From the NCBI GenBank assembly GCA_039794085.1, contig JBDIWC010000058.1, positions 1-20,841 of the forward strand: DNA of 20,841 bases, read 5' to 3'. A program made the position numbers and the translations under genes. Below the pieces are notes generated by a model. It was given only the letters and a program-made list of their open reading frames with translations. It did not search any database and was not told where the DNA came from. Position 1 is the stretch's first letter; each line of letters begins with the position of its first letter. This DNA is from Gemmatimonadales bacterium. Its GTDB lineage: Bacteria > Gemmatimonadota > Gemmatimonadetes > Gemmatimonadales > GWC2-71-9. This document shows, in pieces, positions 1-20,841 of this stretch.

Positions 1-210
1 AGGATGGGGGCCCCGCCACCCCCAACAACAAAATCCCAGTCTCGGCGCGCGAAGCGTGGAGCCATGGAGATCATACGGAGACCCTCTGTGACCTCCGTGT
101 TCTCTGTGGTGATTCCTTCCGACCTTACCCGATCCCGTGCGCCCGGGCATCGGCAGGATGGGGTGCCCCTCCGCCCCCATAAGAAAAGCTGCTGATCCCA
201 GCGCGCGAGG
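1..210. repeat. Array 1 (probably truncated by window edge): modular palindromic repeat, one reverse 30-bp core at 82-111 flanked by two C-rich linker modules
   Basis: CCCTCTGTGACCTCCGTGTTCTCTGTGGTG at 82-111 is identical to 2926-2955. Flanking GGGCATCGGCAGGATGGGG/CCCC linker and GCGCG..GCGTGGAGC modules match arrays 2 and 3 (array 3 as reverse complement). Confidence 0.85.
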
Positions 211-320
211 CGGGGGCGGGGACGTCACCCCGCCCTGGATCGAATCGGAGAGCGGTGGGGACGCAGGGGGTTTGCGATAAACTCCACCTGCCGCAAACCG
301 GTCGGTTATCTTGATGACAT

Positions 321-2599: not shown

Positions 2600-3732
2600 T
2601 CCCCCACCCCGGACTGAACCACAGAGAACACGGAGGACGCAGAGGGTTGACGGCATCCGCGATACGCTCCTCGTCTCGGATTGGTGGGCATCGGCCGGAG
2701 GGGGGCCACGCCACCCCCCACAAAAAAACTCCAGATCTCGACGCCCCCCCCTTCTCCCCGATTCAACCACAGAGAACACAGAGGACGCAGAGGGTTGACG
2801 GCATCCGCGACACGCTCCTCGTCTCGGATTGGCGGGCATCGGCAGGATGGGGGCCCTTCCACCCCCCAAAAACAAAATCCGGATCTCGACGCGCGAGGCG
2901 TGGAACTGCGGGAATCATGCGGAGACCCTCTGTGACCTCCGTGTTCTCTGTGGTGATTTCTTCCCGCCCTACCCGATCCCGTACGCCCGGGTATCGGCAG
3001 GAGAGGGGCCCCGCCACCCCCCCCAAACACAATCCGGATCTCGACGCGCGAGGCGTGGAGCTGCGGGAATCATGCGGAGACCCTCCGTGTCCTCCGCGGC
3101 CTCTGTGGTGACCCCCCACGTCCCCCCCGGATTGAACCACAGAGAACACGGAGGACACAGAGGGTGGACGGCATCCGCGACACGCTCCTCGTCTCGGACT
3201 GCGGGCATCTTCAGGAGGGGGGCCCCGCCACCCCCCAAAAACAAAATCCGGATCTCGCCGCGCGAGGCGTGGAACTGCGGGAATCATGCGGAGACCCTCC
3301 GTGTCCTCCGCGGCCTCTGTGGTGACCCCCCACGTCACCCCGGATTGAACCACAGAGAACACGGAGGACACAGAGGGTGGACGGCATCCGCGACACGCTC
3401 CTCGTCTCGGACTGCGGGCATCTCCAGGAGGGGGGCCCCGCCACCCCCCAAAAACAAAATCCGGATCTCGGCGCGCGAGGCGTGGAGCTGCGGGAATCAT
3501 GCGGAGACCCTCCGTGTCCTCCGCGGCCTCTGTGGTGACCCCCCACGTCCCCCCCGGATTGAACCACAGAGAACACGGAGGACACAGAGGGTGGACGGCA
3601 TCCGCGACACGCTCCTCGTCTCGGACTGCGGGCATCGGCAGGAGGGGGTCCCCGCCACCCCCCACAAAAAAAAAGCTCCTGATCTCGGTTCGCGAGACGT
3701 GGAGCGGTACTCCCGGGCATCGGCAGGAGGGG
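2600..3732. repeat. Array 2: modular palindromic repeat array with 9 cores, including three tandem ~213-214 bp units
   Basis: Forward cores AACCACAGAGAACACGGAGGAC(A/G)CAGAGGG at 2617, 2765 (one variant base), 3135, 3348, 3562; reverse cores CCCTC(C/T)GTG..CTCTGTGGTG at 2926, 3081, 3295, 3508. Lies between convergent genes. Confidence 0.95.
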
Positions 3733-3776
3733 CCCTCACCCGGCGCTACGCGCCACCCTCTCCCGGAGGGAGAGGG
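3733..3776. repeat. CCCTCACCC...CCCTCTCCC-GGA-GGGAGAGGG REP-like hairpin overlapping the 3' end of the DegT-like gene
   Basis: Perfect 9-bp stem 3756-3764/3768-3776; a related element sits in the opposite orientation at 16734-16774. Confidence 0.75.
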
Positions 3777-4953
3777 TTTCCCGGCACCCGTCGGCATCCC
3801 GTTCCGTGACCCGGGAATGGGTGGGCAGGGTGAAGAGCCGAGCGGGCAGATCCCGTGAGGTCGCATCCGCCGGAAGCGCCGCCACCACCGGAAAGCCCTC
3901 CAGGTCCTGCAGCGCCGCGGGGTACCCCGGCATGATGCCGAGCCGTCGGGCGGCGGGGCTCCGGAGCCGCCGGGCCACGCCCTCCGGCACCAGCACCGGA
4001 AGCCGGAGCCACCCCGCGGCGCATCCCTCACCCAATGTTGCACCCGGGGTTCCGACCTCCGGCACCGGAGCCAGCCGGGTGAGCCATCCCGCCCCCGTCA
4101 CCCTCCGATGGGCCGCTTCCCGCGCCGAGGCGGCACGCGTCGCCACCGCCACAGCGGCGGCCACTCCGGAGATCCCCCTTGGCGCATGCGGAGGGTGGAA
4201 GGGCGTCTCCCCAAGTCCCAGCGCCGGGATGGAGGCGGGAATACCATAGAGCGCGGGTCGCCCGAGAGCCCACTGCGCCAGGAGCCGCGGCCACACGCCC
4301 CATCCCCGGCCTCCCTCCCGGGGAAGGTCAAGCCGCGCCATCGCCTCCCTCCCCCGTGGGGTCACCGCCAGAAGCGCCCCTCCCCGTCCCCCTATCCATC
4401 CTTTCCCCCGTCCAAAACTCAGGATTCCCAGGTCCCCCGCCGTGCCCGCCGGTCCCCCGTCCACGATCGCGCCGATCCCCTGGGCGGCGTCCTCGATCAC
4501 CAGCCCCTCGGACCCCACCGTGGCGATCCGCTCCCGCACCGCGCGCACCGACACCGGCACGCCGTACAGGTGGGCCACCACGACCGCGTCCACGCCATGG
4601 GCGATCGCGCGGTCGAGCGAGCCAGTCTCGGGACCGAGAGTATCGGAATCGAGATCGTAGAGCACCACCTCCGCGCCGGCGCCGAGCGCCGCGGTGGCGA
4701 GGTCGAAACAGCCGTAGCCCGGGAGGGCCACGCGGGGAGGCCGTCCTGGATCGGCCCCGGCGGCCCTCATGGCGAGGGCCAGGGCGGAGGTACCGCTGTC
4801 CACCAGGAGAACGCCTTCCGTCCCCAGGTCCGCAGCGAGCAGCGTATCGAGCTCGGCGCGGGCGACGGCGGGCCGCAGGCCACCGACGAGTCCCCGCGCC
4901 AGCGCCCCGAGGGAGAGGGGCGACCAGGCGGGGAGCTGCCGACGGCCGATCAT
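3736..4953 (-). CDS. DegT/DnrJ/EryC1/StrS-family PLP-dependent aminotransferase-like protein
   Basis: DSGTSAL, VVVAHLYGVP, IEDAAQG, LSFGRGKG (candidate PLP lysine), LFTLPTH. ATG at 4953 overlaps the upstream stop (ATGA). Confidence 0.88.
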   Translation of the reverse strand: MIGRRQLPAWSPLSLGALARGLVGGLRPAVARAELDTLLAADLGTEGVLLVDSGTSALALAMRAAGADPGRPPRVALPGYGCFDLATAALGAGAEVVLYDLDSDTLGPETGSLDRAIAHGVDAVVVAHLYGVPVSVRAVRERIATVGSEGLVIEDAAQGIGAIVDGGPAGTAGDLGILSFGRGKGWIGGRGGALLAVTPRGREAMARLDLPREGGRGWGVWPRLLAQWALGRPALYGIPASIPALGLGETPFHPPHAPRGISGVAAAVAVATRAASAREAAHRRVTGAGWLTRLAPVPEVGTPGATLGEGCAAGWLRLPVLVPEGVARRLRSPAARRLGIMPGYPAALQDLEGFPVVAALPADATSRDLPARLFTLPTHSRVTERDADGCRETLSLRERVARSAG

Positions 4954-7086: not shown

Positions 7087-8337
7087 GTGACAGATTCCGC
7101 GACATCCGCAGGACGCACGCACCGGGGGCGGGTCCTGATCGCCCTGGCCACCCTTCCGATCCTGCTGATCACCCTCTTTCCCCGGGACGACCCCTCGATT
7201 CCGCTTCATTCGTGGGGGCTTTGCCTGGCCTGCGGCGACTTCGGGGGAGTCGATTTCCTGCTCAATGTTGCCCTCTTCGGGCCGCTCGGGCTGGCGCTGC
7301 ACCACGGGGACCATTCCCTGCGGCGGGCTGCGGCGGTCGCCTTCGGGCTGACGCTCGGCATCGAGGTGTTCCAGTTCCTCTTCCTGCCGGGACGGTTCGC
7401 CGCCCTTGGCGACCTCGTGGCCAACACCTCGGGGGGAGTGCTGGGATGGATCCTGGGCCGCACCTGGCCCCTCATCGCCACTCCGGCACCCGCCATCGCC
7501 CGCCGACTCGCCGTGCTCACCCTGAGCGGGGTGGCGCTGATATTCTGGGTGACGGGGTGGCTGCTGCAACCCTCGCTTCCCGTTTCCACCTGGTTCGGGC
7601 AGTGGCGGCCGGAGCTCGGTCAGTTCGATCAGTTCATGGGCAGCGTGGATTCGGCGCGTCTCGGCTCCCGCCCCCTCCCCGGTCACATGCTGGTCGACAC
7701 CTGGGAGCGACGACTCGAGCTCCAGGAGGGGGGGGGACCGATCTCGATCCAGGCCTGCGGAACCCTCGGCCCGCCCCCGCGTCGTACCGCGCCGATCGTG
7801 AGCGTGTTCGACGATCGCCAGCGACAGATCGCCCTGCTCGGGCAGGAGGGGGAGGACCTGGTGGTGGCGATCCGCCTGCGGACGGCGGACGCCCGGCTCC
7901 GCACCCCGACCCTCCGGGTGCCCGAGGGTCTCGGCGCCCCGGTCGGCACCCGGTACGATGCCGCGGGATGGTGGGCGGACGGGACCCTTTCGGGGACCGC
8001 GGTGGGGACGGGAGCACTTCCCCTCACGGTTGGATTGGGATGGAGTTTCGTGCTCCCCTTCGGTGCCGATCTCGAGCCGGGGACACCGGTGTGGAGCATC
8101 CTCTGGCTGGCGCTGCTCGGGCTGGTGCCCGGGCGCTTCGTGGGGCGCGGGTGGCGATCCCCGCTGTCGAGCGTCACGGGCGTCGGAATCCTGGTGGGGA
8201 TGGCCCTGGTCGTGAGCGGGTTCTGGGCCTTGCCCCTCCCCTCCCTCGTCGAGCTCAGCGCGCTTGCCGTGGGTCACCTCCTCGGCTGGTCCGTGGCACG
8301 ACGGACCACGCCCTCCGTCACCCCCTCCGCCCACTGA
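7087..8337 (+). CDS. VanZ-like N-terminal domain membrane protein
   Basis: DFLLNVALFGPLG, LTLGIEVFQFLFLPGRFAALGDLVANTSGGVLG (VanZ-like), multiple hydrophobic segments, soluble middle region. Confidence 0.82.
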   Translation: MTDSATSAGRTHRGRVLIALATLPILLITLFPRDDPSIPLHSWGLCLACGDFGGVDFLLNVALFGPLGLALHHGDHSLRRAAAVAFGLTLGIEVFQFLFLPGRFAALGDLVANTSGGVLGWILGRTWPLIATPAPAIARRLAVLTLSGVALIFWVTGWLLQPSLPVSTWFGQWRPELGQFDQFMGSVDSARLGSRPLPGHMLVDTWERRLELQEGGGPISIQACGTLGPPPRRTAPIVSVFDDRQRQIALLGQEGEDLVVAIRLRTADARLRTPTLRVPEGLGAPVGTRYDAAGWWADGTLSGTAVGTGALPLTVGLGWSFVLPFGADLEPGTPVWSILWLALLGLVPGRFVGRGWRSPLSSVTGVGILVGMALVVSGFWALPLPSLVELSALAVGHLLGWSVARRTTPSVTPSAH

Positions 8338-8441
8338 CCACGATCCCCTGCGTTCAAAAACGCCTTCCGGCGTTGGGATGGTTAGCTCTCCGGCGTCACC
8401 AGGGGCCATCCTTGAGACGTCCCCAAACGGAAGGAGGGCTC

Positions 8442-8870
8442 GTGGCAGAAGCGAAACAGGATGGTGACACCACCGGGGAGATCATTGGAGCCGCGATCGA
8501 AGTGCACCGGCTTCTCGGACCCGGCCTGCTCGAATCGACCTACCAATCGTGTCTTGCCTGGGAGCTACAGGCACGTGGGTTGGATATCGTAACCCAGAAG
8601 CCCCTGCCCGTCATCTACAGGGGGAACCGGATCGACTGTGGGTACCGCATCGATCTCCTGGTGGAGGGCATTGTCATCGTCGAAGTCAAGTCGGTTCAGC
8701 GACTCGATCGGATCCATGCAGCTCAGGTGCTCACCTACCTTCACCTGTCCGGATGTCGCGTGGGTCTGCTCGTGAACTTCAACGTTCGCTACCTGCGTGA
8801 CGGCATCCGGCGCCTGATCAACGACCATCCGTGGGGCCACGATCACGAATTCCCTGGAGGCGACTCCTGA
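8442..8870 (+). CDS. GxxExxY protein (PD-(D/E)xK-like nuclease superfamily), 142 aa
   Basis: AAGGAGGG RBS at 8431-8438 before GTG 8442; IIGAAIEVHRLLGPGLLESTY, YRIDLLVEGIVIVEVKSV, HAAQVLTYL, GLLVNFN, GIRRLIN. Confidence 0.95.
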   Translation: MAEAKQDGDTTGEIIGAAIEVHRLLGPGLLESTYQSCLAWELQARGLDIVTQKPLPVIYRGNRIDCGYRIDLLVEGIVIVEVKSVQRLDRIHAAQVLTYLHLSGCRVGLLVNFNVRYLRDGIRRLINDHPWGHDHEFPGGDS

Positions 8871-8902
8871 CATCAGGGCTTCAATTGGGGTCGAGGGAGA
8901 TT

Positions 8903-10725
8903 CACCACAGAGAACACGGAGGTCGCAGAGGGTCTCCGAATGATTTCCGTCGCTCCACGCTTTGCGCGTCGAGATCTGGAAGTTTGTTGTTTGGGGGGGG
9001 TGGAGGGGCCCCCATCCTGCCGATGCCCGGGGGTATGGGATCGGGAAAGGCGGGAAGGAATCACCGCAGAGAACACGGAGGTCCCAGAGGGTCTCCGCAT
9101 GATTCCCGCGGCTCCACGTCTTGCACGCCGAGATCACGGATTGTGTTTGGGGGGGTGGAGGGGCCCCCATCCTGCCGGTGCCCGCCAATCCGAGACGAGG
9201 AGCGTGTCGCGGATACCGTCAACCCTCTGTGTCCTCCGTGTCCGCTGTGGTTCAACTCGGGCGGGGGGAGGAGGCACCACCATGCTTCGCCCGTCGAGTT
9301 CGGAAGTTTGTTGTTTGGGGGGGGTGGAGGGGCCCCCATCCTGCCGATGCCCGGGGGTATGGGATCGGGAAAGGCGGGAAGGAATCACCGCAGAGAACAC
9401 GGAGGTCACAGAGGGTCTCCGCATGATTCCCGCGGCTCCACGCCTCGCGCGCCGAGATCACGGATTGTGTTTTGGGGGGGGTGGAGGGGCCCCCATCCTG
9501 CCGATGCCCGGGGGTATGGGATCGGGAAAGGCGGGAAGGAATCACCGCAGAGAACACGGAGGTCCCAGAGGGTCTCCGCATGATTCCCGCGGCTCCACGT
9601 CTTGCACGCCGAGATCACGGATTGTGTTTGGGGGGGTGGAGGGGCCCCCATCCTGCCGGTGCCCGCCAATCCGAGACGAGGAGCGTGTCGCGGATACCGT
9701 CAACCCTCTGTGTCCTCCGTGTCCGCTGTGGTTCAACTCGGGCGGGGGGAGGAGGCACCACCATGCTTCGCCCGTCGAGTTCGGAAGTTTGTTGTTGGGG
9801 GGGTGGAGGGGCCCCCATCCTGCCGATGCCCGGGGGTATGGGATCGGGAAAGGCGGGAAGGAATCACCGCAGAGAACACGGAGGTCCCAGAGGGTCTCCG
9901 CATGATTCCCGCGGCTCCACGCCTCGCGCGCCGAGATCACGGATTGTGTTTGGGGGGGTGGAGGGTCCCCCATCCTGCCGGTGCCCGCCAATCCGAGACG
10001 AGGAGCGTGTCGCGGATACCGTCAACCCTCTGTGTCCTCCGTGTCCTCTGTGGTTCAATCCGGCGTGGGGTGGGGGCACGCGGCTCCACGCCTCGCGCGC
10101 CGAGATCACGGATTGTGTTTGGGGGGGGTGGAAGGGCCCATCCTGCAGATGCCCGGGGGTATGGGATCGGGAAAGGCGGGAAGGAATCACCGCAGAGAAC
10201 ACGGAGGTCACAGAGGGTCTCCGCATGATTCCCGCGGCTCCACGCCTCGCGCGCCGAGATCCGGATTCTGTTTTTGGGGGGTGGAAGGGCCCCCATCCTG
10301 CCGATGCCCGGGGACCGAGACTGGGAACGCCTCGTGGATGCCGTCAACCCTCTGCGTCCTCCGTGTTCTCTGTGGTTCAATCCGGCGTGGGGTGGGGGCA
10401 CGCGGCTCCACGCCTCGCGCGCCGAGATCACGGATTGTGTTTGGGGGGGGCGGAAGGGCCCATCCTGCCGATGCCCGGGGGTATGGGATCGGGAAAGGCG
10501 GGAAGGAATCACCGCAGAGAACACGGAGGTCCCAGAGGGTCTCCGCATGATTCCCGCGGCTCCACGTCTTGCACGCCGAGATCACGGATTGTGTTTGGGG
10601 GGGTGGAGGGGCCCCCATCCTGCCGGTGCCCGCCAATCCGAGACGAGGAGCGTGTCGCGGATACCGTCAACCCTCTGTGTCCTCCGTGTTCTCCGTGGTT
10701 GAATCCGGGGTGACGTGGGGGGTCA
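8903..10725. repeat. Array 3: 12-core modular palindromic repeat array directly downstream of GxxExxY
   Basis: Forward cores CACC(A/G)CAGAGAACACGGAGGTCnCAGAGGG at 8903, 9062, 9386, 9543, 9865, 10188, 10510; reverse cores CCCTCTG(T/C)GTCCTCCGTG..GTGGTT at 9223, 9704, 10026, 10348, 10671; a shared G-rich linker in each interval. Confidence 0.97.
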
Positions 10726-11715
10726 TCAGTTCAGGATCACGTCCTGCCCCACCCGCGGTTTCAGCGTCCATTGGCCAGTACCATCCGGGACCAGGACGCC
10801 GCGGGTGTTCATGAACCGGCCGGGGGCGAAGGCGGTGCGGAGGAACGGGATGTTGGCATCCAATACCACAATGAGATTTCCGGTGCCGTCGCTCACGGTC
10901 ACGTGAAAGTTGGGGGCCACGGTGACCGTGTCGGAGATGAGGGCACTGGTGATCTGGATCAGGGCCGCGTCGAGAAGCCCGTTGTTGGCCGACGCCGCCG
11001 TGGCGGTGCTGACTGGGGAGGGGATGGGCGCGGGGCGGGTGGCCAGGCGGATGACCCGCGACTGGGTCAGCACCGGTTGGGTGGCTCGCACGCCGGTGCG
11101 GCCGAGCACCACGACGCTGTCCCCGGGGTTGTTGCCGGTGAGGCCGCCCGCCAGCGACACCTCCGTCAGCCGCAGGGTGCCGGAGGTATCGGCGAGGTGC
11201 GAGGTCGTGTCGCTGAAGGACTGGACGCCGGCGAGAATGATCCCGCGCACGAACACGCGCTTGCCGCCCGGGAGCGACCGGACCTCCTTCAGACTCACCT
11301 CGGGGAAGGCCAGCCGGGCCACGACCCCGATCGCGGGGCCTCCATTCACGAGTTGGACGTTGCTGGAGTCGACCGCAGCCACCCGGATGGAATCACCGAT
11401 GCTGAGCGTGTCGATGGCCACCCGGTATTCCCCGATGGGGAGGGTGTCGAAGAGGGCGAACCCTGTCGCATCAGTCAGTTTGGTGGCGAGGGTGTCGTCG
11501 CTGCGTTGGCTCAGGAGGGCCACCCGTGCCCCGGCGAAGACGGTGTCGGCAGCGGAGGCGGAACCGTTGCCGTCCCGGTCGAGGAACACCAGCACCCCGA
11601 TCTGCCCGGTGGGGAAGGGTCCGAAGGTGACGTCGTCGCCCGCGTTGTTGCAGGCGGTGGGGAGGACGAGGGCCAGGAGCAGGGCCGGAAGGCCGAAACG
11701 AGAAACGTGGCGCAT
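10726..11715 (-). CDS. Predicted lipoprotein with SdrD-B-like beta-sandwich and probable OB-fold-like domains
   Basis: Signal peptide ending LVLPTAC (lipobox-like Cys); VFLDRDGNG..DTVFAGARVAL..TDATG..F..LPIGEYRV; PGDSVVVLG and VSDGTGNLIV..GVL segments. TGATG coupling to the receptor gene. Confidence 0.75.
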   Translation of the reverse strand: MRHVSRFGLPALLLALVLPTACNNAGDDVTFGPFPTGQIGVLVFLDRDGNGSASAADTVFAGARVALLSQRSDDTLATKLTDATGFALFDTLPIGEYRVAIDTLSIGDSIRVAAVDSSNVQLVNGGPAIGVVARLAFPEVSLKEVRSLPGGKRVFVRGIILAGVQSFSDTTSHLADTSGTLRLTEVSLAGGLTGNNPGDSVVVLGRTGVRATQPVLTQSRVIRLATRPAPIPSPVSTATAASANNGLLDAALIQITSALISDTVTVAPNFHVTVSDGTGNLIVVLDANIPFLRTAFAPGRFMNTRGVLVPDGTGQWTLKPRVGQDVILN

Positions 11716-14700
11716 CAGTCGATCCTGAGGCCGACCCGGAACAGCCGCGGATCATCGCGGCGGCTCAGGATGGAGCCAAAACGGGGGTTGGGAACGAGGG
11801 ACAGGTTGACGGTGCGGCTGCCGGGAGGCGAGAGCGTCCCCGCCGGATCCACGAGGAAGAGCGCCCGGTCCACCGGCCCCGACTCGGAGCTGGTCACGTT
11901 GTAGGCATCGACGGTGAGGGTGAGATGACGCCCCCCCGCCGAGACGGGAAGACCGATCCCGAAGGAGAGATCGACCCCGTACTGGGTGTCGGCGCGGCAA
12001 CTGTTCCGCTCGGCGAATCCGGTGACGAGGTCACAGCGGCTGGCGTCGAGCAGAGACCGGATGCCGGCGCTGTTCAGGTCGATGAAGGCGGGATCGTTGT
12101 TGCCCGATCCGTCTCCATTCAGATCCACCCCGGGCTGGAACCCGGGGGTGAAGGGGAGGCCGGACTGGACCCGGCCCCGCACCGCCAGCGTCACCGCCGC
12201 CCGCCCCGTGGACCGGTAGCGCAGGGTGGCGGCCGCCCGGTGCGGCACATCGAAGTCGGAGCGCCCCTCGGCCCAGTCGATTCCGTTCAGGCGGCCGGGA
12301 AAGGGGGAGAGCTGGTCGGCGGGATCGCCCGAGGAGAGACCGAGGACGTTGTCTTCCGTGTCGGAGAAGGTGTAGTTGGCCATGATCGACAGGTGACGCG
12401 ACACCTGGCGCTCGATCGCGGCGTTGAATTCGTAGTAGTCACTCTCTCCCGAGGGGAGGAGCGCATAGACCGCGTCGAAGCTGCCGAACCGGCGGTTGCT
12501 CCCCGGCTGCGGGGTAATCAGCGACCCCTGCTGTACCAGCGATCCAAAGACGGGCCGGCCTTCCGACGTGGTGGCGAGCGGCCCCGGCACCCGGTTCAGA
12601 TCCTCGCGGCGGAGGAGATAGTCGGTGTGGACGTACCGTCCGCCGAGAGAGATGTTGAATCCCCCCTCGACGTGCCGGGTGAGCCCCGCCTCGAGCTTGT
12701 AGGATTTGGGAGCCCGGTAGAGACTGTCGGGAAGGAAGGTGAGCCCCGGCGCCGACACCTGGGTCTGGGCCCCCGCGGGGAGGTTGGGCCAGTTGGTGAA
12801 GGAGCCGAGCCCGCGGCGGATCGACACGGTCCCGTCCATGGTCATCGCCTCGGCGAAGACCGCGGGGTCGAGACGCCCCACCTCGAGCCCGCCGCCGGCC
12901 CGCAGGATCCACTCTCCCCGATTCTGTACGTCCCAGACCAGGGCCGCGTGGGGGGAGAAGCCCTTACGATCACTGGGCCGCCCCCCGGTGGCAATCCCGG
13001 TGAGGGTCTGCCAGGCTGTGTTGTCGAGCACCTTGCGGGTGGGGAGAAACTGGGTCTCGTACCGGACGCCGTATTGGAGCTGGATTTCGGGAGTGGCCTG
13101 CCAGAGATCCTGCAGGAAGACCCCGACCTCGGTGCTGTTGAAGTCGATCGGCCGGGCCGGACCGCTCGCCTGGAAGAAGGTGCCGGTACCGGCGCCGAAC
13201 CGGTCGAGATCTCCGAAGGTGAAGATCCCGGCGGAGCCGAAGCGGTAATCCTGCTCATAGTTGGTGAGCCGCGCGTTCCCGCCGAACTTGATCACGTGCC
13301 TGCCGGCCCGGACCTGGAAGGCGTCGCTGATGTCGAAGGCCCGCTCCTCGAAGGAGCCGGGGAGCTCCCCCGAGGTCCCGAAGGCGACGCTGCTCCCGGT
13401 GATCACGGTTCCCGGCAAGGTGCTCCCGGTCCAGTTCCGCTCGGCCGAACTGAATCCGACCCGGAACTCGTTGGCGGTGCTGGACCCGGTCGAGGTGAGC
13501 CCGAAGGCGGCGGAGATGTCCCGGGCATCGAGCTTGGTGCCGGCGTTGTTGGACAGTCCGGTCCCGAGCCGGGGAGAGTCCTCTTCCCAATCGGCGCCCC
13601 CGACCCGGACCATCAACTCCTGGGTGCCGGAGAGGCGCCAGTCGACGCGGGCCAGGGCGCTTCCCCCCTCCCAGGTTCGCACGACGGGGGAAGTTTCCGC
13701 CGCGAGGCTCCGGCCGAAGGACTGGCCGATGGTGCGGATCCGGTCCACCGTGACCCCCGGACTGAATTGGGCAGGGTCCTCCGTCCACGGCTGGGCGGTG
13801 GGAAGTTCAACCGACTGGTACTGGGCCTGGATCAGGAAGTGGGCGGTGTCGGGCACGATGGCCCCGGAGAGAACGGCTCCCACGAGCAACGAGGTGCCGG
13901 AGCTGTCCCCGGGGTTGAGCTCGGTGCGGTCCCCGATCTTGGCGCTGCTGGCCCAGCCATAGGGCTCGAAGGAGACGGTGTTTCCTCCCCGGCGGGTGAG
14001 GGCGGAGAGGAGGGTCCCCGGGGTGCCGCGGAACTCATTGTCCATGCTGGTGCCGAGCACGTTGAGCTGCTCGGTGGCCTGACGGGCAAACCCTTCGGCC
14101 TGGAGCGGCTCGGCGGGAAGTCCGGGGTGACGGAGCAGCACCTCGGGGATGCCGTCCACCAGCAACCGGCTCCGCATGGCGGGAAGGCCGGAGCCGGCGA
14201 GACCGATCCCCCCCTGGCGATCATCGAAGGGGGAGACGAAGGCGCTGGTCCCCCGGAGGGCGTCGGTCGCCACCGGATTCCGGTCGAGTTCCCGCATCTC
14301 GAAATCGGTGAGGGTCCGGATCCGGCCCATTCCGGTCCGGGCCCCGTCGCCCCGGATCTCGGTGGGCGCACTGATCGGGGGAGGACGGCGTTCCAGGGCA
14401 AAGACGACGGTGGTGCGTTGACCGGCAGTCACCGCTATCCCGATCCGGCGAACCGGCTGGAACCCGATCTGCTCAGCCAGAATGTCGTAGACCCCAGGCG
14501 CCAGGAGCGGCACCGAGAAGGCGCCATCGAAGTCGGTTTCGAGTTCGAGCCGGAGTCCCCCCCGGGCGGACTCGAGGGTCACCGCCACCCCGGAGAGGGG
14601 AACACCCAACTCATCGTTCACCTGGCCCCGGAGGGAGCCCGACGTCAGACTCTGTGCCAGGAGCGGTGTGGGAAGGAACGCACAGACGCCCGCAAGAAGG

Positions 14701-15202: not shown

Positions 15203-15272
15203 TCATTGTTCATTGTTCATTGCTCATTGTTCATTGGTCATTGTTCATTGGTCATTGGTCATTGGTCATTGT
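15203..15272. repeat. Heptamer tandem repeat (TCATTGN)x10
   Basis: Ten contiguous TCATTG(T/G/C) units ending 15 bp before ATG 15288. Confidence 0.97.
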
Positions 15273-15287
15273 TACATTGAACCAGGC

Positions 15288-16649
15288 ATGGCCCAGACCT
15301 CCTTTCGCAACCGCATCCACCTGGCCTTGATTCTCCTGGGGGTTCTGCCGACCTCCGTGGTGATCGTGGCGCTGGTGATCTCGCTCCGGAGCAGCAACGC
15401 GCCGGCGGCGGTGTCGGCGGCGCTCACGCCGGTGGCGGCGACGGGACGGGAGCTGCTCCGGGTGATCGACACCACCGGCCTCTCCCTGCCGGAGCGCCGG
15501 GCCCTGCGCGACCACGCCGACAGCCTGAACCGCGCCCTGGGTCGCGCCGGATCTGCCCTGTCCTACAACCGCCGGCTGACCCCGACCCTGACCGCCGTGG
15601 TTCTCCTGGGTGGCGGCCTTCTTATCTACTTCACCTGGTATCTGGGTCTCAGTCTTTCCCGGCAGTTGAGTAGCCCGATCGAGGAGCTGATCGGCTGGAC
15701 CGATCGGATCCGTCACCACGAACCGCTCCCGCAGACCGACCGTGCCCCAGGCGCCCCGGAGTTCACCGCCCTGCGGGAGGCGCTCCGGGAGATGGCCGCA
15801 GCTCTCCAGCAGGCCCGGTCCGCCGAATTGGAGGCGGAGCGGTTACGGGCTTTCCGCGAGGTGGCCCGCCGGGTGGCGCACGAGATGAAGAACCCGCTCA
15901 CCCCGGTTCGTTTCGCCATCAGCCAGCTGGAACGGACCGCGACTCCGGCGCAGCGGGAGTCACTCGAGGTCCTGAGCATGGAGACGGCTCGTCTCGACCT
16001 GCTGGCCAAGGACTTCTCCAATCTGGGACGGCTCCCCGAGGGTCCCTCCGCCGAGGTGGACGTGGGGGAGCTGCTGGGGGAGATCCTGCGCACGACCCTC
16101 CCTCCGGGGATGACCCACACCCTCGAGGTCGATCCCCACACGCCGCTGTTGGTGGGGCACTACGATCCCCTGCACCGGGCCTTCACCAACCTGATCCGGA
16201 ATGCGGTGGAGGCGAGTGGCGGGGAGGGCCGGCTGGATGCGTCCGTGCGCATGGACGAGGGGGAGATGCTGGTGCGTATCGCCGATCACGGGGGGGGGAT
16301 CCCGGAGGCGCTCCGGGAGAAGATCTTCATGCCCTACGTCACCGACAAGCCCGATGGCACCGGACTCGGGCTCTCGATCGTCAAGCAGGCGATCGATCTG
16401 CACAACGGCACGATCTCGGTGGAGGACACACCGGGAGGCGGAGCCACCTTCGTTGTGCGCTTCCACGGGCGGGCCGACCGCAGCCGGCGGCTTCCCTACC
16501 TGGGAGTGGGACTGGGCCGGGGGGGGAGGGGGGGGGGACACGGAACCGAGAACCCACGGGATGGGCGGACCGACCTGGCCCGGCGGACGGGGGAGTACCG
16601 TTTTCCCCAGACGCTCCCCTCTCCCACCACCTCGTCGGACCGCGAGTGA
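15288..16649 (+). CDS. Membrane sensor histidine kinase (HAMP-HisKA-HATPase, NtrY-like)
   Basis: Two hydrophobic helices, ARRVAHEMKNPLTP H-box, NLIRNAVEA N-box, DHGGGIP, DKPDGTGLGL G-boxes. Confidence 0.93.
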   Translation: MAQTSFRNRIHLALILLGVLPTSVVIVALVISLRSSNAPAAVSAALTPVAATGRELLRVIDTTGLSLPERRALRDHADSLNRALGRAGSALSYNRRLTPTLTAVVLLGGGLLIYFTWYLGLSLSRQLSSPIEELIGWTDRIRHHEPLPQTDRAPGAPEFTALREALREMAAALQQARSAELEAERLRAFREVARRVAHEMKNPLTPVRFAISQLERTATPAQRESLEVLSMETARLDLLAKDFSNLGRLPEGPSAEVDVGELLGEILRTTLPPGMTHTLEVDPHTPLLVGHYDPLHRAFTNLIRNAVEASGGEGRLDASVRMDEGEMLVRIADHGGGIPEALREKIFMPYVTDKPDGTGLGLSIVKQAIDLHNGTISVEDTPGGGATFVVRFHGRADRSRRLPYLGVGLGRGGRGGGHGTENPRDGRTDLARRTGEYRFPQTLPSPTTSSDRE

Positions 16650-16733
16650 CCCGGTTCCCCCCCTGCCCCACGGGACCGGGTTCCCGCTACATTGTGCGGT
16701 TCTCCCGAGCGCCCGGACTTCGCACCGATCCCG

Positions 16734-16774
16734 CCCCTCTCCCCCCGGGTGGGAGAGGGGGTCGGGGGGTGAGG
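16734..16774. repeat. CCCCTCTCCC..GGGAGAGGGG...GGGTGAGG REP-like hairpin
   Basis: 10-bp stem 16734-16743/16751-16760 followed by GGGGGTGAGG; reverse-orientation relative of 3733-3776. Confidence 0.75.
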
Positions 16775-16865
16775 ACCCGGACATCCACCACCCGATGCGC
16801 ACTGTCTGTGCGGGATCATCCGGTCCCGGTCGTCATTCGGATGCAGGTTTCTCCGACGAGATCTC

Positions 16866-19975: not shown

Positions 19976-20634
19976 TGGGAACCCCGCGCCTGCTGCTGCT
20001 CGCTCTCGGGCTCGGGCTCGCTCCCGTCACGGTGCTGGGCGCCCAGGAGCGCCTGTCCGTCTCCCTCACCCTCACGGCCAATCCCACCCCCGGGGGCCCT
20101 CCGACTCCGACCATCGCGACGCGCAACCTGGTCCGGGATCCGCGGTGGGTGGGTGTGCTGAACGAGCCGATCCCGGTGCGGATCCGCTACCGGCTGGAGC
20201 TCTGGCGGTCGCGCGCGTTGAACGACGCCCTGGAGCGGCCCTTCGAGTGGGAAGCTCTGGTGCGGATGGAGCCGCTCTACGAACAGTTCTCCCTGACGAT
20301 CATCAACCGGGGCCGGGTGACCGAGGAACGGCGACGGCCCACGCTGGAGGAGATCGGAACCTTTCTCGACCGGGGAATCCAGGTGCTCCTGCGGCCGAGT
20401 CAACCCGGGGTCTACTACTACACCCTCAACGTGACGGTCACGGCGCTGTCGGACCGGGAGCTGGAGGACTACGAGCGGCTGATCCAGGGCGAGCCGGCGG
20501 CGCCGGGCGGAGCGCGCAGTACCGTGCCGGGGCTGGGGAGATCGGCCCGGCGCTTGCTCCTCCGGGTCTCGGGGCTTCCCTCGACCGAACTGACCGAGCG
20601 GACCGGGACGTTCACGGTAGGGGGTAGGGAGTAG
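19975..20634 (+). CDS. Hypothetical exported protein (possibly DUF4390-like)
   Basis: TGATG coupling to the upstream gene, signal-peptide-like N-terminus, PVRIRYRLELWRSR segment. Family assignment is tentative. Confidence 0.7.
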   Translation: MGTPRLLLLALGLGLAPVTVLGAQERLSVSLTLTANPTPGGPPTPTIATRNLVRDPRWVGVLNEPIPVRIRYRLELWRSRALNDALERPFEWEALVRMEPLYEQFSLTIINRGRVTEERRRPTLEEIGTFLDRGIQVLLRPSQPGVYYYTLNVTVTALSDRELEDYERLIQGEPAAPGGARSTVPGLGRSARRLLLRVSGLPSTELTERTGTFTVGGRE

Positions 20635-20725
20635 GGAGTAGGGAGTAGGGGGTAGGGAGTAGGGAGTAGGGAGTAGGGAGTAGGGGGTAGGGAGTAGGGA
20701 GTAGGGAGTAGGGGGTAGGGAGTAG
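20617..20725. repeat. Heptamer tandem repeat (GTAGGGR)x15 plus a partial unit
   Basis: Fifteen GTAGGG(A/G) units at 20617-20721 plus GTAG; overlaps the stop codon of the preceding gene. Confidence 0.97.
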
Positions 20726-20841
20726 TCCCTTACGGACAAGATTGAACACAAAACGGCAACAATATTTGGGGCGCCCCCCGGACACCCGCTCCGGCCGTGC
20801 GTGTGACGGCGTCTGTGACGGCATCCCACTTGGGGCTCTTC

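Follow-up and report, generated by a model that had tools for sequence, protein, structure and literature searches.

A predicted PD-(D/E)xK nuclease of the GxxExxY family and its periodic repeat arms as a candidate nuclease-repeat pair

The closest experimental precedent for the locus described here is the SsnA-NTS system of Neisseria, in which, according to the publication, 71% of the Ssn genes are flanked by repeats on one side and 42% on both sides (PMC11893778). The second point of reference is the partnership between RAYT enzymes and REPINs, which shares with the GxxExxY repeats a unit of two inverted repeats with a spacer and arrays that grow locally (PMC8049555, PMC3733652, PMC8266576). 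GxxExxY proteins (PF13366) are listed as having no known function in a published table (PMC3424549), and comprise 22,031 clusters at 50% identity (E ≤ 0.001). In a literature search that covered mostly open-access journals, the name GxxExxY occurs in three papers, and we found no publication linking these proteins to repeats. Here, we analysed a 20,841-nt stretch of DNA (hereafter, the window) in which a GxxExxY gene is followed by a large repeat array (Table 1).

The GxxExxY gene and the array beside it

The earlier note had reported an intact GxxExxY gene with a ribosome-binding site and a D...EVK motif, and all of these are in place: the AAGGAGG sequence precedes the start codon, the protein matches PF13366 (E 6e-43, 146 bits versus a cut-off of 22) and TIGR04256 (E 3e-43, 147 bits versus a cut-off of 35), and the motif is D71...E81-V-K83. 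The G-x-x-E-x-x-Y motif corresponds to G28, E31 and Y34. D71, E81 and K83 are invariant in an alignment of 83 diverse homologs, and the predicted catalytic residues are E31, D71, E81 and K83, accompanied by a Q95-x3-Y99 motif. PF13366 was the sole family recovered in the profile search, with no DDE, HUH, recombinase or GIY-YIG domain. The top fold matches of the structure model (pLDDT 92) nearly all belong to the PD-(D/E)xK superfamily (best Z 8.2); Foldseek searches with this model gave no matches at E ≤ 0.001, and a sequence search of solved structures for GxxExxY homologs gave none at E ≤ 1. On the strength of the model, the window protein is predicted to have the PD-(D/E)xK fold, with its alpha-beta-beta-beta-alpha-beta core, and to be a nuclease. 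For this copy, purifying selection is weakly shown by a dN/dS of 0.28 over the gene core (4 non-synonymous versus 5 synonymous changes); the value is 0.84 over the whole gene and 0.06 for a neighbouring gene.

The fold neighbours include proteins of the Cas4/RecB/lambda-exonuclease type, such as the Cas4 protein SSO0001 (Z 8.1, rmsd 6.8, 108 aligned positions) and lambda-type matches (E 4e-3 to 2e-2). The order E...D...ExK...QxxxY is common to GxxExxY proteins and to this group. In contrast to this group, however, the window protein has only 142 residues, the conserved alignment columns include no set of Fe-S cysteines, and the gene has no cas neighbours. An equally good score is reached by a type IIG restriction enzyme (Z 8.2), and the fold therefore leaves the substrate unfixed.

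Table 1. Coordinates of the features in the window
Feature	Position	Strand	Remarks
Gene-less copy, same family	1-215	-	One L arm, 84-108; contig end cuts the copy
Gene-less array, same family	2600-3732	.	9 arms at 2620-3589
Left flanking gene, VanZ-like domain	7087-8337	+	Outside the system; site marker
AAGGAGG, Shine-Dalgarno-like	8431-8437	+	4 nt upstream of the GxxExxY GTG start
GxxExxY gene (PF13366/TIGR04256)	8442-8870	+	GTG start, 142 aa, single predicted PD-(D/E)xK domain
Triad-arm array, 12 arms	8904-10699	.	7 L on +, 5 R on -
First L arm, unpaired	8904-8932	+	Oriented away from the GxxExxY gene
Complete L-R unit, 188 bp	9063-9250	+	Identical to 9544-9731
Complete L-R unit, 188 bp	9544-9731	+	Identical to 9063-9250
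Complete L-R unit, 188 bp	9866-10053	+	98% identity with one unit of the array's ortholog in G001
L-R unit, 187 bp	10189-10375	+	98% identity with a unit on contig C49
Last complete L-R unit, 188 bp	10511-10698	+	Fifth of the five complete units
Right flanking gene, SdrD B-like domain	10726-11715	-	Convergent

The 1.8-kb non-coding array begins, as previously described, at position 8904, 33 bp past the GxxExxY stop codon; a codon-based (crude) gene caller found no gene within 8904-10699, and a coding repeat protein was rejected. Each arm consists of three periodic 7-mers, the arms being spaced by 157-164 bp, and inward-facing L and R arms together form a gene-less hairpin unit of ~187 bp. The array comprises five complete L-R units plus two L arms that lack a partner. 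The description of the repeat as palindromic holds for facing L and R arms, whereas the cores themselves are periodic direct repeats. Two segments 481 bp apart (8984-9283 and 9465-9764) are near-exact duplicates (99%), and because the units are more alike within an array (93% identity) than between arrays (80%), the array is likely to have grown mostly via local tandem duplication. The unit at 10189-10375, which as DNA folds into a single long hairpin (z -4.6), is 87-89% identical to its four array-mates; judging from the identities between units, a unit has recently been exchanged between loci. The orthologous array of genome G001 has 8 arms and a different unit make-up. Logan contigs from two studies, the best run of which may be the source sample, follow the order of upstream gene, GxxExxY gene and first arm; none of them spans the array, and the number of units rests on the assembly.

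Facing L and R arms mismatch at 11% of positions in the 7-mer cores and at 39% in the spacers, which is the pattern that a motif read by a protein would produce and is unexpected for a plain stem. This difference bears on the earlier suggestion that the array is co-transcribed as a structured RNA; in such a scheme, the arms would act as a long transcript stem that is bound or processed by the protein, in an intervening-sequence-like or regulatory capacity. As RNA, the unit at 10189-10375 likewise folds well (z -5.2), and promoter and terminator scans returned nothing, leaving the interval between the gene and the array without a terminator-like site. Moreover, differences compatible with G-U pairing outnumber A-C differences on the L-to-R strand of this family (70 versus 48; 57 versus 30 in the cores), and 9 of the 24 gaps carrying L/R arms lie between convergent genes, compared to 323 of all 3005 gaps (crude gene calls). 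However, the 44 arm pairs behind the G-U excess are related copies, a few of them mis-oriented, and 92 boxed cassettes taken from many taxa lack this asymmetry (55 versus 68). Only 3 of the 53 consensus pairs show compensatory change, Rfam produced no matches, and the two strands fold about equally well (L-to-R favoured in 33 of 55 cases). Given the lack of Rfam matches, the scarcity of compensatory change and the weak, non-independent G-U bias, the suggestion finds little support, and we consider an action of the arms in RNA quite unlikely.

The arm family in this genome and beside GxxExxY genes elsewhere

The L/R arm family is dispersed through this genome, its 112 arms being spread over 36 loci and 25 contigs, and the array at 8904-10699 is the largest. 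Matches to the strict arm pattern number 107, whereas the reversed pattern has none, and the arms are thus not due to chance. The nuclease-free recurrences noted previously at 1-210 and 2600-3732 hold, respectively, one and nine arms of the family; the latter array is located between convergent radical-SAM and DegT-like genes. A relaxed genome-wide pattern (668 matches versus 342 for the reversed pattern) served solely for listing subfamilies, and a motif-free triad finder missed the window arms because the spacers vary. The genome contains eight GxxExxY matches, including five full genes, each beside a different arm subtype, and these subtypes also occur as gene-less dispersed copies. Among the other genes examined (five of the Y1/RAYT type, three GIY-YIG, one DUF559 and three four-helix-bundle genes), none lies within 500 bp of an L or R arm, and they were ruled out as drivers of this family, on adjacency only. 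Each of these gene types is associated with its own repeat.

Across genomes, arms are found within 250 bp of 158 of the 190 GxxExxY genes, with similar frequencies upstream (143/195) and downstream (146/196), compared to 11/139 and 15/148 (8-10%) in a distal control 1.2 kb away and 31/975 and 31/980 in a shuffled control. Among the loci that were unseen when the arm pattern was written, arms are present at 137 of 153, so that the enrichment anticipated in the earlier note is borne out. The usual form is a gene boxed by two inverted, inward-facing arms (107/190; median cassette length 488 bp), and GxxExxY loci are not defined by a large array. The window gene, unlike most of its relatives, is not boxed and has no arm upstream. 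The two arms of a cassette share the same period in 108 of 113 cases (shuffle maximum 74) and the same anchor type in 110 of 112 (shuffle maximum 82). Mapped on the protein tree, the arm period requires 20 changes, compared to a mean of 49.1 and a minimum of 37 for shuffled labels; the predicted co-variation is therefore present, but such co-variation alone is expected from co-inheritance because the gene and the arms are physically linked. Among the 15 nearest non-orthologous relatives of the window protein, 8 of the 12 that could be typed carry the arm type of the array, compared to 37 of 142 overall. The prediction of arm type from the neighbour fades below 60% protein identity (period correct in 90/148; baseline 53%).

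The boxed organization is compatible with a minimal transposon, in which the protein would cut and join DNA, with the arms as its terminal inverted repeats and the unit of 187 bp as its MITE. The tight length of the gene-less units (31 of 33 are 185-190 bp), the internally deleted GxxExxY copies that keep both arms (three in G000 and one in G001) and the four L/R loci of G001 that are missing from G000 (~300 kb compared) are also in line with such an element. Nevertheless, target-site duplications show no consistent excess in 92 cassettes (k = 2-8, nine offsets), those of 3-8 bp not exceeding shuffles except at one offset (4 versus 0.4), conservation fades gradually outside the arms, and the array ends are ragged. 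Comparison of G000 with G001 (36 annotated of 47 junctions) revealed no clean empty-versus-filled sites for single units; instead, at most polymorphic sites the other genome harbours a different repeat family, replaced or nested, rather than a clean insertion. The fold includes no DDE, HUH or recombinase domain, and plasmids seldom carry the gene (8 of 72,556 records). It is absent from 50,697 phage records and represented by one locus in IMG/VR, and phage carriage was therefore rejected as the main route. Overall, a transposon in this sense appears unlikely.

At the level of the phylum, the earlier expectation that repeat load depends on gene presence is upheld. Among 301 genomes, related ones being non-independent points, at least 10 ACC-type arms occur in 41 of the 110 that carry GxxExxY and in 4 of the 191 that do not; the remaining 69 gene-bearing genomes have fewer than 10 arms of the searched type. 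In the congener G002, the matches of the two flanking genes are adjacent, 68 bp apart, and the GxxExxY gene, the array and the arms are all absent. Subtypes dissociate by protein clade: at least five TCA-type arms were detected in 8 of 10 genomes with a TCA-clade gene, in 7 of 100 with only other GxxExxY genes and in none of the 191 without the gene. In the four genomes whose only GxxExxY genes belong to the TCA clade, TCA arms number 32-71 and ACC arms 0-2, and 34 of the 41 ACC-rich genomes without the TCA clade have no TCA arms at all, although four genomes outside the broad TCA clade contain at least five such arms, one of them 136. The tracking of the TCA protein clade by TCA arms speaks against an explanation by repeat-tolerant genomes. 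This dissociation could, however, also arise if an arm family entered together with its gene and host processes then multiplied it. In its full form, such passive linkage would mean that the gene and the arms arrive together and that host slippage, gene conversion or further mobile elements then multiply the arms, with no part played by the protein. It would be consistent with the intergenic hotspots of this genome, where many unrelated repeat families gather, with the local duplication within arrays, with another arm family that is carried within a longer unit (~300 bp) whose own ends are conserved, and with the at least three arm families that have no matching gene in this 95%-complete assembly (CACGAAA-, CACAGAT- and TCA-CGCGAAG-type; 20-66 copies). 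Yet it leaves unexplained the clade-specific 7-mer pattern in both arms (proteins 50-70% alike), the invariance of the catalytic residues and the finding that generally repeat-rich genomes do not have the subtype whose gene is missing from them (34 of 41), and we view it as rather improbable.

A proposed role for the GxxExxY protein

We lean, by a modest degree, towards a role in which GxxExxY nicks the triad arms and host repair then copies or swaps arm-bearing DNA. The predicted nuclease would bind, recognize and nick the thrice-repeated 7-base arms beside its gene and at 35 other places, and repair of the nicks by the host would copy or exchange arm-bearing DNA between intergenic sites, through recombination or gene conversion and without a transposase reaction. 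If SsnA and the Cas4/RecB-like fold neighbours are taken as analogues, the protein may prefer single-stranded DNA, the putative substrate being a single-stranded hairpin of two facing arms. The idea in the earlier note that GxxExxY is the cognate enzyme of the repeat family thus holds as far as adjacency, co-variation with the protein tree and load by gene presence and subtype are concerned, and a repeat-spreading, arm-cutting role is likely from these sequence patterns. More tentatively, GxxExxY proteins might constitute a library of tiny nucleases with clade-specific 7-mer-triad codes, that is, a third, PD-(D/E)xK self-spreading class, with orthogonal pairs coexisting in this genome.

A further possibility is that the host keeps the system for a function of its own, the arms serving as tags and the nuclease cutting incoming or exposed single-stranded DNA and tuning recombination or horizontal transfer, with spread as a by-product. 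SsnA of Neisseria provides a precedent (PMC11893778), and the window gene is chromosomal, is not boxed and keeps its synteny between G000 and G001. The patchy distribution (110/301), with up to 12 matches per genome, and the turnover (three of the five full genes of this genome are shared with G001) look more selfish; nothing ties the organism to competence, and PADLOC models returned nothing above weak Cas4 matches (E 0.004). We consider a host-kept function very unlikely.

Should the favoured role of nicking and repair be correct, a common class of intergenic repeats would be explained, and nuclease-repeat partnerships would gain a third enzyme fold. PF13366 now has a candidate substrate named gene by gene, and its function is testable with short oligonucleotides; this genome, in which five genes are paired with five arm subtypes, lends itself well to such tests. 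The repeats found at GIY-YIG, Y1, DUF559 and four-helix-bundle genes would then point to a general principle, and a nuclease of 125 residues that occurs in many natural specificities could serve as a tool, like Ssn.

Comparison with known repeat systems

Several familiar types of element could be set aside. A CRISPR array is ruled out, given that the arms alternate in strand, the inner sequence is repeated, Rfam has no match and no cas families were found among the neighbour genes scanned. In ORF-bearing intervening sequences of 23S rRNA, a small gene occupies the loop of a long stem, as in the boxed GxxExxY relatives; however, there is no rRNA in the window, the gene is unboxed, and the boxed cassettes show no G-U strand bias. 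MITEs resemble the GxxExxY units in being short and gene-less, with inverted ends, tight length and deleted gene copies that keep the ends. Those of classical IS differ in that here there is no transposase fold, no target duplication, ragged boundaries and replacement at sites, and a classical IS/MITE is ruled out by the lack of target-site duplication, fixed ends and clean insertion.

RAYT and GxxExxY systems have in common that repeats are more abundant in gene-bearing genomes, that enzyme and repeat groups co-evolve and that both are rare on plasmids; the window gene lies unboxed beside gene-less units, as RAYT genes do beside REPINs. RAYTs, however, are HUH tyrosine transposases (PF01797), single-copy and vertically inherited, whereas GxxExxY genes encode no HUH domain, often occur in several copies, are patchily distributed and are themselves boxed by arms. 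The GTAG tag of RAYT/REPIN palindromes is absent from both strands of 8871-10725, and the five PF01797 matches of the genome are in other places, with other repeats and no L/R arm within 500 bp.

The likeness to Ssn and its SRM repeats extends to a small nuclease of one domain, encoded by a gene that has its own repeat at its flanks, to gene-less intergenic copies in arrays and to repeat variants that follow protein clades, Ssn repeats reaching hundreds of copies. Ssn is a GIY-YIG protein (cd10448), whereas GxxExxY is a PD-(D/E)xK protein by prediction without a GIY-YIG match, and the PF01541 genes lie elsewhere. SRMs are self-contained hairpins of 20-50 nt, whereas a GxxExxY arm is made of periodic 7-mers and forms a stem only in a facing pair; the published SRM pattern has no match in the array and 181 in the genome (reversed control 33). 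The activity of SsnA, a site-specific cleavage restricted to ssDNA, has been measured, and that of GxxExxY is predicted from sequence and model. The best reading of the system is that of a nuclease-repeat pair similar to Ssn/SRM or RAYT/REPIN, built on a third fold and a member of neither.

Linkage of triad arms to GxxExxY genes

The GxxExxY gene and the array downstream of it are a real feature. They form the gene-bearing locus of a repeat family found throughout the genome and represent one case of a widespread partnership between GxxExxY genes and arms, that is, triads of periodic 7-mers. Linkage was assessed on 214 loci from relatives in the phylum, the GTDB (16 loci from several phyla), metagenomes (80) and a virus (1), of which 213 had a match and 208 approached full length; dropping those 90% alike left 203. 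Being best matches to the window protein or its profile, these loci are biased towards its part of the family. Upstream, 143/195 loci have a degenerate triad within 250 bp, and downstream 146/196 do, compared to 11/139 and 15/148 at positions 1.2 kb off and 31/975 and 31/980 in shuffles. The enrichment of repeats next to GxxExxY homologues for which the earlier note proposed a test is thus found: among the 190 loci with both flanks, 158 carry an arm within 250 bp, and inward-facing arms box the gene in 107. The arm pattern was devised after viewing the source genome (G000) and loci L001–L046; among loci met after it was written, 137/153 have an arm and 93/153 are boxed. A relaxed pattern, with many arms having 7-mers that end in T, fits 31 of the 50 loci without a typed arm (21/287 in the distal control).

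Repeat load likewise follows the gene. PF13366 matches are present in 110 of the 301 genomes of the phylum, and at least ten ACC-type arms are found in 41 of these 110 versus 4 of the other 191, related genomes in these counts not being independent. Repeat abundance is therefore not independent of GxxExxY presence; such independence was among the outcomes that the earlier note named as refuting its proposal. One of the gene-bearing genomes without arms, G172, is unpublished. The TCA subtype was examined to check whether some genomes merely tolerate all repeats. At least five TCA-anchored arms occur in 8/10 genomes with a TCA-clade gene (at least 60% identical to the TCA-type paralogue), in 7/100 whose GxxExxY genes all lie outside that clade and in 0/191 without any; for a broader clade, the counts are 11/17, 4/93 and 0/191. 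Four genomes with TCA-clade genes only carry 32–71 TCA arms and 0–2 ACC arms, and the TCA arm is absent from 34/41 ACC-rich genomes outside the broad clade. Exceptions include G297 (136 TCA arms), G203 (33) and G316 (18). The near-complete G297, an exception at the threshold used, is the richest genome in the phylum sample, with 372 ACC-type arms besides its 136 TCA-type arms and nine PF13366 matches. G000 itself has five full GxxExxY genes, each adjoining a different, also dispersed arm subtype, and at least three further arm families without a gene in the assembly. No arms of the window's two kinds (L and R) adjoin other candidate mobilisers of G000, which carry other repeats.

Within a cassette, the two arms match in period (108/113), anchor (110/112) and first 7-mer (76/103) far more often than in 2000 shuffles. 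Repeat type also co-varies with protein phylogeny, a test suggested in the earlier note: mapped on a FastTree phylogeny (204 proteins, 125 columns, 100/201 forks open), arm period requires 20 changes versus 49.1 with shuffled labels. The three nearest neighbours below 70% identity predict period in 122/148 cases, and those below 60% in only 90/148 (baseline 53%). The arm type of the array recurs in 8 of the 12 typed among the 15 nearest non-orthologues of the window protein, compared to 37/142 overall. Co-inheritance of arms and gene means that co-variation alone does not show recognition.

The window gene and its array

G000 is a 4.16 Mb draft (66.8% GC, 94.7% complete) with the window as contig C58. 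The window protein scores well over the PF13366 and TIGR04256 cut-offs, and its AlphaFold model (83 sequences, pLDDT 92) has the PD-(D/E)xK topology. Foldseek gave no match at E 0.001, its matches being lambda-type exonucleases, Cas4 and AdnA (E 4e-3 to 5e-2), and VIA-align gave BpuSI (Z 8.2) and Cas4 SSO0001 (Z 8.1). Residues G26, G28, E31, D71, E81, K83 and F113 are invariant, with Q95 and Y99 nearly so. The family comprises 22,031 clusters at E<=0.001; a sequence search found no solved structure. A 2012 survey, in the part consulted, lists PF13366 as of unknown function with many transfers (PMC3424549). Among the 12 best matches of the family search (P0001–P0012), most have 240–295 aa and two matched stretches and are likely tandem double-domain GxxExxY proteins, a hint of a possibly dimeric enzyme.

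Compared with its orthologue L031 (Gemmatimonadales; protein 91% identical), the gene differs in its core by 5 synonymous and 4 non-synonymous substitutions (dN/dS 0.28); dN/dS is 0.84 for the whole gene and 0.06 for a neighbour gene, weak evidence of selection on the window copy. Synonymous divergence (0.06–0.07, from small counts) is about one third of the neighbour's (0.19) and could reflect recent exchange between lineages.

The first arm begins 33 bp past the GxxExxY stop, as previously claimed, and the array reaches 10699 with 12 arms. Each arm consists of ACC and three 7-mers C-R-C-N-G-A-G with a 9-bp period, L and R being distinguished by the bases after the arm. An L on the + strand with an R on the - strand forms a unit of 187–188 bp that folds into a single long hairpin (z of -4.6 as DNA, -5.2 as RNA); the array comprises five of these units together with two unpaired L arms. 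Unusually, the window gene lacks an arm on its upstream side, and the first arm downstream faces away from it. Contigs from two studies connect GxxExxY with both the upstream gene and the first arm; none covers the whole array.

At the same site, the congeneric G001 has the gene and an array of 8 arms in a different order. In G002 (same genus, 90% complete), neither gene nor arm was found, and the matches of the two flanking genes lie 68 bp apart versus 2.4 kb in the window. Since 12 further genomes carrying the right-hand flanking gene have no PF13366 match near it, the simpler interpretation is that the G000/G001 line gained the gene.

Coordinates of the gene, cassette remnants and neighbouring repeats
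Feature	Location	Remarks	Basis
GxxExxY gene	window 8442-8870	intact; GTG start; AAGGAGG 4 nt ahead of GTG	sequence; PF13366/TIGR04256 matches
Internally deleted GxxExxY cassettes	G000 C76:1268-1500; C37:10865-11070 and 11531-11750	both arms kept	
Locus L263 (G001) versus G000 counterpart	G000 C62:1867-1931	third of gene left in G001; in G000 gene lost, arms kept	
Tandem 7-mer arrays	window 15203-15279 and 20617-20725	TCATTGT-type, GTAGGGA-type	
End of ~300-bp dispersed unit	window 20724-20841; many G000 contigs	ends conserved, non-inverted	
CCCTCACCC...CCTCTCCC hairpins	window ~3736-3785 and 16600-16800; G000 C15:22645-22968		pattern
Three small GIY-YIG genes	G000 C3:120469, C38:8690, C22:47757	GTCA-type hairpin beside each	

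Dispersal of the repeat family

The genome-wide count gave 112 L/R arms, spread over 36 loci and 25 contigs of G000, with none inside called genes (0/53 and 0/54 under a crude codon model). Complete units measure 185–190 bp in 31/33 cases. Arrays grow locally, since units are more alike within arrays (93% identity, 23 pairs) than between them (80%, 505 pairs). One array unit shares 98% identity with a unit on contig C49, against 87–89% with its array neighbours, which shows a recent exchange between the two loci. Across an alignment of G000 and G001 covering ~300 kb, with 36 of 47 length-changing junctions annotated, five L/R loci are common to both with differing unit content, and four are present in G001 only, with another repeat family there in G000.

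No target duplication is prominent among 92 boxed cassettes, and beyond the arm the information content fades within ~5 bp. Array ends are ragged, and polymorphic sites have the appearance of replacement or nesting. These traits make cut-and-paste movement less apt, and nick-stimulated recombination fits better: the GxxExxY protein would recognise and nick the arms, and spread would then be host-mediated. In internally deleted gene copies, the common sequence runs past the arms, and comparison of L263 with its G000 counterpart shows a way in which a gene cassette can become a hairpin without a gene. Another G001 locus, L264 (C55:14300-15240), has a GxxExxY gene with divergent CAGGAT-type arms; its G000 counterpart (C79:5346-5464) is a short remnant with one arm.

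The alternative of a structured RNA, also raised in the earlier note, is weakly suggested by a G-U asymmetry among related copies of the L/R family (70 vs 48 overall, 57 vs 30 in cores), but boxed cassettes lack it (55 vs 68), compensatory change affects 3/53 pairs and Rfam gave no match. Facing arms mismatch less in cores (11%) than in spacers (39%), the pattern expected of a protein-read motif.

Other gene–repeat pairs and known systems

Related 7-mer arrays flank, by pattern, two of the three four-helix-bundle (PF05635) genes of G000, and the third has another 7-mer array recognised by eye; this is a candidate parallel gene–repeat pair. The ~300-bp dispersed unit lies inside 7-mer arrays, bears two paired triad arms of the CACAAAA type (142 arm matches in G000) and is present in G000 and missing from G001 at two sites. 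The CCCTCACCC...CCTCTCCC hairpins (46 pattern matches across G000) box a DUF559 gene on C15, another putative nuclease–repeat pair. Given the GIY-YIG genes with GTCA-type hairpins and 181 SRM-pattern matches versus 33 in the control, Ssn/SRM pairs are probably also present in G000.

We found no link of GxxExxY to repeats in the published literature searched. Linkage, co-variation and load support the proposal that GxxExxY is the cognate enzyme of the repeat family; its membership in RAYT/REPIN fails, as the fold differs and the array lacks GTAG, and so does membership in Ssn/SRM, with another fold and no SRM. We consider cognate recognition of the arms by the protein probable, and the full model of nicking followed by host-mediated spread only somewhat favoured. 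Ssn, a 94-aa GIY-YIG nuclease with a repeat on its flank, cuts ssDNA near that repeat, according to the part of the source consulted (PMC11893778). To judge from the consulted parts of these reports, the GxxExxY–arm pair would work in like manner to both Ssn/SRM (PMC11893778) and RAYT/REPIN (PMC8049555, PMC3733652, PMC8266576).
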